A DNA stretch of 64,000 nt from Gemmatimonas sp. (GTDB lineage Bacteria > Gemmatimonadota > Gemmatimonadetes > Gemmatimonadales > Gemmatimonadaceae): contig OZ257156.1 of NCBI GenBank assembly GCA_965279375.1, positions 2,656,001 to 2,720,000 of the forward strand, written 5' to 3'. Below are positions 46,901 to 49,900 of the stretch, piece by piece. A program made the position numbers. Numbering within the stretch: position 1 is the stretch's first letter; every line of letters starts with the position of its first letter.

Positions 46901-49900
46901 GGTCAGTACGACGATCGCGACGGACTCGATCACGCTGGCCAACACGATCATCCACGAACTGCTGCACAACACATACTTCGCCAAGGGGCGCGTGCCTTTC
47001 AACGAGTCCTTCGCCAGCTTCGTGGGTGGGCGCGGCGCCGAGCACTTCTTCCGCGCCCGCGGCGACACGGCGTCCTTGCGTCGCGCCGAGGCGGATTGGC
47101 AGGATGACCTTTTGCTCGGCGCCTTCTGGGCCCGCGTGTCCCACCAGATCGATAGTGTGTTTGCCGCGCTGCCGGCTGACGCGAAAGAGGCGCGCATCGC
47201 CGCACGCGACACGGTGTATACGCACGCGCGCCGCCGGTTGGTGGATTCGATCGGTCCGCAGCTGCGCGGATATCCGGCGGGGTGGGCGGAACGCGTGCCG
47301 CTCAACAATGCAGTGCTGCTGTCGCGCAGAGTGTACGCCGAAGGGTTGGATGGATTCGATTCGGTGTACGTCGCGGAGGGGCGCGATTTGCGGCGCGCGA
47401 TTGAGAAGATCATCGCGCGGGATCGGGAGACGGTACGAAAGTAGGGACCGGTAACCGGTCACGCCGTTGGCTGTTCGGCGGCCGGTCACGCAGTTCGCCG
47501 TTCGGTAACCGGTCACGCGGTTCGCTCCACTGATCTCCCGTCACTCACCACTCGTAGCCCGAAACAGGGGTGTGTCGAGTTGGCGGTCCTCGACCCCGCC
47601 TGATCTGAGTGAGAAACTCTGAACCGGGAACTGGCGACTGCGCCCTGCCGCCGCTCTGACACTCCTCTGTTCCGGGTCGCGAGTGGTGGGTGGTCAGTCT
47701 TGAGTGGAGCGAACTGCGTCACCGGTTACCGGTGACGATTGGACACGCCGGCGTAAGCCGAAGAGCATCTTTCGCACGCCGACCAATTCGTCCATCAGAG
47801 ACACCGCTTCGGCTGGATCAATCAGCGCCAGCTCCCGCGCCAGCTTGAGATGACTCTCCAGCTCATTCGCCGACGCAATCGCGATGGTGAGAAATCGCGC
47901 GAACTGCGCCGGCGAATCCTGCCCGGCGCCCTCCGCGATGTTCGAGGGAATCGATACGGCCGCGCGGAGCAACTGCGCGCGGAGTCCGGGCGCGTTGCGA
48001 TGGGTGAGGCGTTTGGAGGCGGGATGCAACGCGAGCGTGAGCGCGTGTGCTCTCTGCCAGACATGGAGTTTGTTGTGATCCTGCATGGCGACAACGTGCG
48101 GAGCAACGGCGGAATGGCGGTAACCATTTCGATGCCCGGTAGTGCCGATTCACGCATCCAACCGGTAACCGGTCACGCAGTTCGCCGTTCGGTAACCGGT
48201 CACGCAGTTCGCTCCACTGATCTCCCGTCACTCACCACCCGTAGCCCGAAACAGGGTTGTGTCGGGTTGGCGGTCCGCGACCCCGCCTGAGCTGAGTGAA
48301 AAACTCTGAACCGGGAACTGGCCACTGCGCCCTGCCGCCACTCTGACACTACTCTGTTCCGGGTCGCGAGTGGTGGGTGGTCGGTCTTGAGTGGAGCGAA
48401 CAGCGTGACCCTTCACCGGCGGAACCGGATGGAGCAAACCAGGTGACTGGTTACCGAGAACAACCCCTACGGCGTCTTCGCCTCCGGCTGCAGTACGAAT
48501 CGCGCCCGATTCGTCTCACTCAAATACACCTTCGCCGCCGCCGCCAACTTCTCCGTCGTCAACCCCGCAATCAGTTCGTCGTTGGCGAACACCGTCGTCG
48601 GGTCGTCGCCGTTCTCGATGCGGTCCCGCAGCACTCCCGCCCACCAGCTGTTCTGTTTGCGCGTGACCTCGAGTCCGCGGCGCTGCTGCTCGCGTACGCG
48701 CTCAACTTCCGCGGCCGTCGGCGGGACGCGACGGAGCGAATCGAGCTCCTGGCGCACGGCGGCGAACAGTGAGTCCGCCTTCTCCGGTGCCGAGCCGTAG
48801 TCGATGACCAACTGCCACTCCTGACGGGGACGGCGCGAGAAGCCCGCGTTGACGCTTACCGAGTAGGTCGCCCCCAACGATTCGCGCAGACGGTCCAGCA
48901 GGCGCATCTGCAGCAGCTCGCCAACGGAACCGATCAGATATGCCTGCTCGCGGCTCCACGCGCCTGTGCCCGCGAGCATCAGCACTGTCTGGCTCTGCGG
49001 AGCGACGCCCTTGCGCACCGTCTTGTCGATCTGTCCGGAGAACAGCTTGGGGCCAACATCGCGGAACGTCTCTTTGCGACCCGTCGTCGGCAACGACGCC
49101 AGCCACTGCTCCACGAGCGGCTTGAGTACCGCCGCGTCGACGTTGCCCACGAACACGAACGAGAAGTCGCCCGCCTCGCCGAAGCGATCCTTGTAGATCG
49201 TCAGCAGCTGACCAAGATCGAGTTCCTTCAGTCGATCCACTGAGATCGGCCGTGCGCGCGGACTGCCGCCGGCGAGTGTGACCGTGATCGTGTCGCCAAA
49301 CACCGCGCTCGGATTCGCGTCCTTGTTGCGCAACTGGTTGTCGAAATTCTGCAGCAGCGCTTGAAAGACCGCGCTGTCGGCACGTGGTGCCGTCATGCGC
49401 AACCACGTGAGCTGCAGCAACGTCTCGAGATCGCGAGGCGAGGCGCGCCCGCTCAGGCCTTCGCTCAGATCACTGATCGACGGCGCAACACTCGCGACCT
49501 TGCCAGTCAACTTCTTGTTGAGATCGACCTGCGAGAAATCACCGACGCCGCCATTCGACAACACCAGCGCAGCGAGCGATGTGCGGAACACCGCGCTGTC
49601 CGGCGCAAGACTGACACCGCCCGGACTCCATGCCGTCATCAGAATCTGATCGGCGTTGTAGTCCGTCGGCTTCACGAAGACGCGAATGCCATTGGACAAC
49701 GTCCACTCGGTCAGTCCGATGCTCTCATACTTCTTCTCGGCCACCACGCGACCGGCCGTGGGGACCGTCTTCACCAACGCGCCGTCGACAACCGTCTCCG
49801 TCCACGCGGCAATCGTTGCAGAAGCAACCGTGCGGAAGACTGCGCGAATCTCCGTCTCGGTCGGCGGCGTGAGGCCAGCCTTCTCGGGCATCGTCACTGT

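Follow-up and report, generated by a model that had tools for sequence, protein, structure and literature searches.

Genes of the PF05635 family and the palindromes that flank them very probably form cognate pairs. We analysed one such gene in the complete 5.3-Mb genome of a Gemmatimonas sp. (here G000), within a window of 64,000 nucleotides (contig OZ257156.1, positions 2,656,001 to 2,720,000) along which positions are counted below unless a contig is named. The gene has its own dispersed palindrome family at its flanks, is under purifying selection, keeps a mostly fixed site with drifting arms and carries a promoter motif that it has in common with transformation genes. Structures have been solved in the very large PF05635 family, but it has no assigned function. 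The pairing offers it candidate substrates, in the arms of each gene, together with a candidate condition, the transformation regulon, and candidate active residues, which makes its function directly testable.

The PF05635 gene and its palindrome family

The four-helix-bundle gene (PF05635/TIGR02436) occupies 47694..48086 on the reverse strand and encodes a 130-aa protein with the Avd fold. The product of this open reading frame scored 104.9 bits against PF05635 (cut-off 33.8) and 103 bits against TIGR02436 (cut-off 24). A profile search of G000 gave this single PF05635 match, and the nearest named relatives of the protein come from Gemmatimonadota. Two genes identified by profile matches form a convergent pair around it, outside the element: a putative aminopeptidase (PF10023; 46383..47444, forward strand) and an M16 peptidase (PF00675/PF05193; 48467..51373, reverse strand). 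An Rfam search of 46500-49500 gave no rRNA match, which places the locus outside any rRNA gene, and neither the locus nor the palindromes of nine other loci had a real Rfam match. Scanning 47300-48600 for sigma-70 promoters and terminators returned nothing.

Two copies of the palindrome flank the gene, at 47482-47732 and 48169-48419. They are 251 nt long, 94% identical and in direct orientation, and each flanking copy, of ~250-290 bp, is an imperfect inverted repeat in itself. With their sub-repeats the copies extend to about 47447..47733 (copy 1, in which 27-nt tandem sub-repeats stand to the left of a ~230-nt imperfect hairpin core) and 48161..48457 (copy 2, the direct repeat of copy 1, with a ~38-nt sub-repeat at its right). 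Copy 1 starts 3 nt past the stop codon of the aminopeptidase gene and takes in the final 13 codons of the PF05635 gene, and copy 2 ends 10 nt from the stop codon of the M16 peptidase. Folded as DNA, copy 2 reached -79.6 kcal/mol (z = -5.84), and none of 200 shuffles was equally stable.

Searches with blastn and nhmmer placed the palindrome family at 13 loci in G000, comprising the two gene flanks and 11 sites elsewhere. Nine of these gene-less loci are full length and two, at C1:2217021 and C1:1715890, are reduced to the outer arms. Pairwise identity over the core was 87-95% for 11 of the 13 copies. All 13 lie no further than about 85 nt from a stop codon, and eight of them, read by hand, occupy gaps between convergent genes, compared with 167 of 957 gaps of 150-700 nt in a crude gene set of G000. 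These profile, blastn and nhmmer results bear out the genome-wide survey's note from which we started, which had described a lone PF05635 gene flanked by a palindrome that stands at 11 other sites, with eight of 13 copies between convergent genes.

The G000 copies are mosaic, with 266 of 496 informative site pairs incompatible; recurrent mutation could be part of the cause of these incompatibilities. Columns that varied among copies numbered 8/31 for A, 19/65 for G, 17/70 for C and 12/42 for T, a count that gave no sign of adenine-specific variation between the repeats. The family has a slight one-strand G-T excess (9 vs 4), and double-sided changes were found at 2 of 86 pairs in five copies.

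The same note had stated that the element is absent from other genomes of the genus. This held for the 86 other genus genomes, none of which contained the element; the search returned five chance matches of 23-36 nt, with at most eight candidates scored per genome. Searching genome_contigs and metagenome_contigs by exact pattern also gave no match. Pieces of the element and the gene do occur, however, in three sequencing runs from two other studies, one of them derived from a relative that is ~86% identical in the neighbouring gene. Because these runs contain such pieces, the G000 family is lineage-restricted but not strictly private to G000. A 730-nt 'skip' in run X7 was dismissed as proof of a gene-less allele, for three reasons: its contig stops 124 nt into the element, the two copies share 94% identity, and X7 does cover the gene.

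Gene–palindrome pairs across genomes

As a test set for the genus we took all 25 PF05635 genes of five near-complete congeners and gave each flank a score for repeats, whether inverted, direct or hairpin, using the 99th percentile of 700 G000 genes as the threshold. We found repeat-structured flanks at 22 of the 25 PF05635 genes, as against 20 of the 700 G000 control genes. Across all usable loci the flank test was passed by 66 of 91 (7 of 19 outside Gemmatimonadota), a set that includes duplicate loci and congeners that are not independent and from which 10 of 101 loci had been dropped as unusable. Two layouts were seen. In the commoner one, the gene lies within the loop of one inverted pair; in the other, as in G000, it lies between two complete palindromes.

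Six flanks, picked by eye as five with strong arms and one without, were searched genome-wide, with copies counted by hand and therefore given as lower bounds. Five of the six head their own dispersed family, of about 13-42 gene-less copies. The L088 arm has at least 14 such copies in G070 and at least 13 in G063; in G070 the L072, L083 and L078 arms have at least ~32, ~42 and ~39, respectively, and the 57-nt L085 arm has at least ~32 in G063. The sixth flank, that of the G069 gene L089, which is weakly structured, has no dispersed family in its genome. Each of the four PF05635 genes tested in G070 heads a different family, which gives this one genome at least four different gene–family pairs. 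Outside this set of six, the L091 arm has one other copy in 84 kb.

With the exception of L088, these arm families were absent from the other genomes tested. The L088 family was found at full length in four of 86 genomes (G070, G072, G063 and G020); gene and arms occur together in three of these, and in the fourth contig breaks fall within the element. Weak matches to the family in G009 and G066 again adjoin PF05635 genes. Because one family is common to four genomes, palindrome families track the lineage of the gene and not the species. The survey's central idea, that PF05635 genes are the cognates of palindrome families, was therefore replicated at five of six flanks, with L089 as the one negative case, but its description of the family as 'species-specific' and of each arm as private to its genome does not survive the distribution of L088.

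In other phyla, inverted arrays of heptamers make up the arms. In Chloroflexota and Acidobacteriota, the heptamer arms of homologues also occur without the gene elsewhere in the same genomes, and two such heptamers were found at 5-7 gene-less loci each in three draft genomes and at none in control genomes. One homologue, L183, lies within a 23S rRNA gene, between inverted heptamer arms, a layout like that described for the Coxiella intervening sequence (PMC4990558).

At the aminopeptidase–M16 site, a PF05635 gene is present in five of 24 informative congeners with different arms in each, in agreement with the survey's report of same-site orthologues. One of these five genes is truncated and one is in the opposite orientation. 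In the remaining 19 the site is empty and the peptidase genes are directly convergent; five further congener loci were uninformative. The closest homologue at this site, in G086, has an arm weakly similar to that of G000. In a tree of 63 proteins, many forks of which are unresolved, most PF05635 clades are bound to one place on the chromosome; at sites that are shared, the orientation is reversed in about six cases, and a few relocations occur. Genomes carry 1-12 paralogues, and those within a genome are deeply diverged and site-bound across genomes. The dN/dS ratio was 0.05-0.18 in seven usable pairs, two of nine having been dropped (one out of frame, one saturated), and the gene is thus under purifying selection.

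Three genomes that are 91-94% identical (G070, G072 and G020) have ~16 element sites in 60 kb. Most of these sites are shared, and the number of tandem units at them differs among the three. One site is filled in G072 and empty in G020, and we saw no clear target-site duplication there. Between two copies of the element lies a type I restriction–modification (R-M) cassette in G070 and a set of ars genes in G072. No identical multi-copy PF05635 genes were found. Gene and repeats are inherited mostly vertically and change slowly, a pattern that seems unlike that of an active insertion sequence.

A promoter motif in common with transformation genes

About 50 nt before the PF05635 start codon are conserved among homologues, whereas the arms are not. 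In G000 this stretch contains a predicted leaderless promoter (48093..48137, reverse strand) with an upstream box, GCA..GGTTAC, near -41 and a -10-like box, CACGTT, 6 nt before the ATG; it scored 18.0 against a matrix trained without G000. Among 61 PF05635 leaders, 55 have a -10-like box 5-8 nt before the ATG (background 9.6%), 40 have the upstream box GCG..G(G/A)TGAC (background 5%) and none has a Shine-Dalgarno sequence (background 20%). The 21-nt spacing sets the upstream box near -41, the position near which class II activators bind.

Among the best matches to the matrix in G000 are those that precede yraN-recA, a comEA-like gene before pilB and an operon ending in dprA, the last gene being counted only as the third behind a match. 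Others lie before recQ, an Eco57I-type R-M gene, two Uma2 genes and a GxxExxY gene, and before brnT, vapBC, parAB and smg-topA, so that toxin–antitoxin pairs are among the genes headed by the motif. comM and radC scored more weakly. A match at radA, which lies inside dnaB, was left out. Scores below 5 were obtained for comEC and for lexA, uvrA, uvrB, recN and recG, these last five having been located by short motifs. We downgraded an SOS reading of the motif because lexA, uvrA, uvrB and recN lack it.

Since the G000 matches had been seen after the fact, we scored orthologues of yraN, comM and comEA across the genus. Scores of at least 10 at the leaderless position were found at 25 of 25 yraN, 22 of 24 comM and 22 of 25 comEA loci, counts that include G000, congeners that are not independent and three genes chosen once the G000 matches were in view. 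The same score was reached by 4 of 3671 starts in the crude G000 set and, among starts that have a TAnnnT box, by 2 of 158. Taken alone, the upstream box had a median score of +11 to +14, compared with -10.5 for background. A control with aminopeptidase promoters was based on 12 of 30 loci, at which the starts are uncertain. The comEA and yraN assignments fall below NCBIfam cut-offs, and the Pfam families HHH_3 and UPF0102 are above cut-off.

The motif common to PF05635, yraN-recA, comM and comEA genus-wide is new here. YraN and ComM are reported to resolve the transformation D-loop (PMC13663708). Judged by these promoter sequences, the PF05635 gene is probably co-regulated with transformation genes, and the conserved motif may define a competence regulon of Gemmatimonadota.

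Candidate mechanism, rival explanations and related systems

The predicted model of the protein is all-helical (pLDDT 92.9). Its best fold matches were 2GSC (Z 20) and 2RLD (Z 16.2), and it also matched Avd (PDB 4DWL and 8UB7) with Z 14.5-14.9, an rmsd of ~2 Å and 13-14% identity. The five chains in both 2GSC and 2RLD suggest that the protein may be a homopentamer. PF05635 has been treated as Avd-like (PMC10053308), and Avd is described as a pentamer that grips a stem-loop, with flipped-out bases between protomers (10.1101/2023.10.23.563531), and its reported binding of both DNA and RNA lacks sequence specificity (PMC5758913). Among 117 homologues, Q38, N49, E52, G53, S72 and E75 are invariant, all six being present in the G000 protein, and W10, R41 and S45 are nearly so. 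Helical spacing would place Q38, R41, S45, N49 and E52 on one face, and polar invariance of this kind would fit a binding or catalytic site. The fold search gave no nuclease relative above generic helical bundles, its top matches being uncharacterised proteins and Avd, a result that leaves catalysis possible. In a domain search only PF05635 matched the G000 protein, with neither a GIY-YIG nor an HUH/Y1 tyrosine transposase domain.

Our preferred reading, to which we give about an even chance, is that the protein is a transformation-linked hairpin-binding, and perhaps nicking, partner of its own palindrome, comparable to Ssn/NTS or RAYT/REPIN. The protein would be produced alongside ComEA, ComM, YraN and RecA, at times when single-stranded DNA is at hand. 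It would form an Avd-like ring and bind the imperfect hairpin of its own family where DNA is single-stranded or forms a cruciform. Binding, and possibly a nick made by invariant polar residues in helices 2-3, would steer RecA/ComM recombination to the palindromes. Such steered recombination would homogenise copies and slowly seed new ones just after stop codons, and it would also invert the gene between its arms and exchange cassettes between copies. The 23S rRNA intervening sequences (IVS) that bear S23p would be the same arm–gene–arm element lodged in rRNA. Expression, binding, DNA as the substrate, catalysis and spreading are steps that we infer from the patterns described above, and catalysis by the PF05635 protein itself seems doubtful.

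In the L088 family, 19 of 109 pairs have double-sided changes that preserve the pairing, and replacements by A-C were about as frequent as those by G-U. This parity, together with the mosaic copies, makes it somewhat more probable that the protein acts on DNA than on RNA hairpins. The RNA-level alternative is that the protein binds the RNA stem of the palindrome in 3' untranslated regions and thereby affects RNase III processing or mRNA stability, with host recombination spreading the repeats. It would suit the position of all 13 copies just after stop codons, the binding of an RNA stem-loop by Avd (10.1101/2023.10.23.563531), the L183 homologue between its heptamer arms in a 23S rRNA gene and the slight one-strand G-U bias of the G000 family; it also has a precedent in the IVS of Coxiella, which has inverted repeats at its ends as well as heptamers and is reported to be cut out by RNase III (PMC4990558). 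However, it leaves unexplained a promoter common to DNA-uptake and recombination genes, the symmetry of A-C and G-U changes in the L088 family runs against it, and with 8 of 13 sites convergent no single strand is the transcript. We consider this alternative unlikely.

Somewhat less probable again is that PF05635 genes are passive cargo, sitting in recombination hot spots between copies of palindromes that GxxExxY, Uma2, YraN or host recombination spreads. Other cassettes do stand between a pair of copies (in G070 type I R-M, in G072 ars genes), the same promoter motif heads true PD-(D/E)XK nuclease genes, and the fold has no known catalytic relative. Cargo would not be expected, however, to have a different family for each of the four genes tested in G070, or to differ from control genes as sharply as 22 of 25 does from 20 of 700 in the flank test. 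In addition, arms descend with the gene, as the weakly similar arm of the closest same-site homologue indicates, the GxxExxY gene of G000 has an unrelated family of its own, and neither of the two Uma2 genes of G000 has repeated flanks.

Structural homology to Avd, which is itself required for the retrohoming of diversity-generating retroelements (DGRs), raises the idea that the protein is an Avd-like accessory with whose help a reverse transcriptase copies palindrome RNA to new places. A search with the PF00078 reverse transcriptase model gave no match in five genomes (G000, G070, G063, G072 and G069), whereas control genomes were positive, and the copies have no adenine bias; these two results make a DGR-like route very improbable. 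Least probable of all is an autonomous insertion sequence with the gene-less copies as its MITEs, which would account for the arm–gene–arm layout, the patchy presence at the aminopeptidase–M16 site (5 of 24 informative congeners), the few relocations in the tree and the 1-12 paralogues per genome, but against which stand deeply diverged, site-bound paralogues, the failure to find identical multi-copy genes or a clear target duplication, and a promoter that is host-type and regulated.

The preferred reading, a hairpin-binding partner of the gene's own palindrome, has counterparts among known systems. The Ssn nuclease, which is flanked by its own hairpin repeats, is reported to modulate transformation (PMC11893778). 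As described in that report, Ssn/NTS resembles the PF05635 pair in that a small gene with a single domain has its own dispersed hairpin repeat at its flanks, that across bacteria each pair has a different repeat and that natural transformation is involved, but SsnA is a GIY-YIG single-stranded DNA nuclease and the G000 protein is an unrelated four-helix bundle. PF05635 repeats also differ in spanning 60-340 nt with no common terminal tag, and nuclease activity of PF05635 is a candidate activity only. With RAYT/REPIN and TIRYT/TIR the pair has in common a mostly vertical gene at a fixed site with cognate intergenic inverted doublets (10.1101/2021.07.10.451892, PMC3733652), the presence of several pairs in one genome, an arrangement in tandem arrays and an overlap between arms and the 3' end of the gene; REPINs are likewise described as slow and mostly vertical (10.1101/2021.07.10.451892). 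In contrast to these systems as described there, PF05635 has no HUH/Y1 domain, its arms have no GTAG-type tag and its gene is often found inside the loop that a single long inverted pair forms. The PF05635 pair thus works like RAYT/REPIN, TIRYT/TIR and Ssn/NTS but is a member of none, because their defining domains are absent.

The 23S rRNA IVS with S23p agrees in protein family, in the inverted arms at its ends and in its heptamer repeats (PMC4990558), whereas the G000 locus lies between protein genes, with its own promoter and with gene-less copies genome-wide. The accessible portion of PMC4990558 draws no link between IVS arms and dispersed repeats. Avd has the same fold, and its pentamer binds a stem-loop (PMC5758913, PMC3240598, 10.1101/2023.10.23.563531); a reverse transcriptase, a template repeat and adenine mutagenesis, as in DGRs, were not found with PF05635 genes. 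Our literature search, with most subscription journals and supplements outside its reach, found nothing that ties PF05635 to dispersed palindromes or competence.

A broader reading, which we regard as rather improbable, is that the S23p/Avd fold is a hairpin-specific DNA processor that maintains private palindromes during transformation, whose arm–gene–arm units entered intergenic DNA and 23S rRNA and which DGRs recruited. It would be a further solution after the HUH RAYT, the GIY-YIG Ssn and the PD-(D/E)XK GxxExxY pair. In DGRs, Avd itself could recognise or nick the DGR target hairpin, a role for which the available text of PMC3240598 lists the factor as unidentified. The gene–palindrome pairing itself would bring together three problems: where large, non-REP intergenic palindromes and heptamer repeats come from, how intervening sequences that code for proteins arose in rRNA, and what ancestry and role Avd has in DGR retrohoming. 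If the protein cuts, the family would be one of sequence-specific single-stranded DNA enzymes with many natural specificities.

Comparison of G000 with itself revealed three large non-coding repeat families, each of which has a plausible cognate gene. The first consists of ~88 short repeats beside an integron integrase (TIGR02249), which we take from their motif to be attC-like, and the second is the PF05635 palindrome family. The third is a ~180-nt palindrome at 15 loci, and one of its copies runs into the 3' end of a GxxExxY gene. A motif search found only this one GxxExxY gene in G000; its protein has a PD-(D/E)XK fold, and its upstream motif is similar to the PF05635 promoter. A small four-copy family related to the third has no gene beside it. 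Palindrome copies also lie next to other genes, namely brnT-brnA, imuB, dnaE2 and cassettes of type I R-M and ars genes, which speaks against the preferred reading.

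Variation in copies and arms of the palindrome

Two copies of the element in the Gemmatimonas genome (contig C1, positions 2217021-2217340 and 1715890-1716192) retained the outer arms around unrelated interiors, and in the first of these the left arm had given way to the right arm's reverse complement. Several unrelated arm families (L072, L079, L085, L088 and L101-L108) contained mini-hairpins of the form GCGAAGC or GGCGAAGCC, which would be expected to be unusually stable in single-stranded DNA. At the orthologous site in genome G087 (L054), a lone palindrome of about 130 nt followed the aminopeptidase stop codon and the PF05635 gene was missing.

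Palindromes also bracketed other genes. Comparison of L201:2200-9730 with L209:3089-5384 and L207 revealed that in G070 a type I restriction-modification cassette lay between two copies of one palindrome. In G072, two copies of the same palindrome enclosed an arsR-arsM-arsC cassette at the same site, and G020 carried the ars genes with a single copy. Elsewhere in G070 (L203:13219-14381 and other loci of the L078 palindrome family), a 120-nt palindrome unit was repeated in tandem, at most about nine times per array. Each array had linker sequences of its own, and unit numbers differed between close relatives; these arrays resemble BIMEs. In an Acidobacteriota 23S rRNA gene (L183:509-2757), a PF05635 gene was inserted about 560 nt in, between inverted heptamer arms; this is an intervening sequence whose rRNA position differs from that of the Coxiella one, described at helix 45 (PMC4990558).

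A promoter motif shared with competence genes

The motif GCG-N7-G(G/A)TGAC, followed after 21 nt by TAnnnT and a leaderless ATG, was conserved ahead of yraN-recA, comEA-pilB, comM and the cmd-obg-dprA operon (C1:4022370, 4894163, 3169110 and 4005464; orthologous loci L242-L316). The genes under the motif are a candidate competence regulon of Gemmatimonadota. The PF05635 gene carried the box as GGTTAC (window 48120-48125) instead of the usual GGTGAC, and GGTTAC likewise marked the ends of the element (window 47447-47460 and 47721-47733); inspection by eye of two other loci found no such recurrence of the promoter box at element ends.

Three copies of the element lay within 9 kb (C1:5100840-5109700), after imuB, after a small gene adjoining blaI and after dnaE2. 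Between them, a brnT-brnA pair bore the top-scoring promoter motif; the reading frame that opens at the ATG behind it, however, closes 13 codons on, still upstream of the frame that matches BrnT.

A second gene-palindrome pair and a probable integron

The GxxExxY gene (TIGR04256, PF13366; C1:1666793-1667444, L232), also preceded by the promoter motif (score 15.9), was overlapped at its 3' end by one copy of a palindrome family of about 180 nt, found at about 14 further loci (for example, C1:233200, 1626432 and 3120596). This gene and family are a second gene-palindrome pair of the genome. At the loci of a related four-copy family (C1:761367, 831659, 1090786 and 2272532), no adjoining gene was found.

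An integron integrase (TIGR02249, 384 bits; C1:1245979-1246980, L338) was adjoined by about 88 repeats of about 139 nt, many of them at 1.248-1.26 Mb, which we take to be attC-like; together they probably constitute a chromosomal integron with many cassettes.
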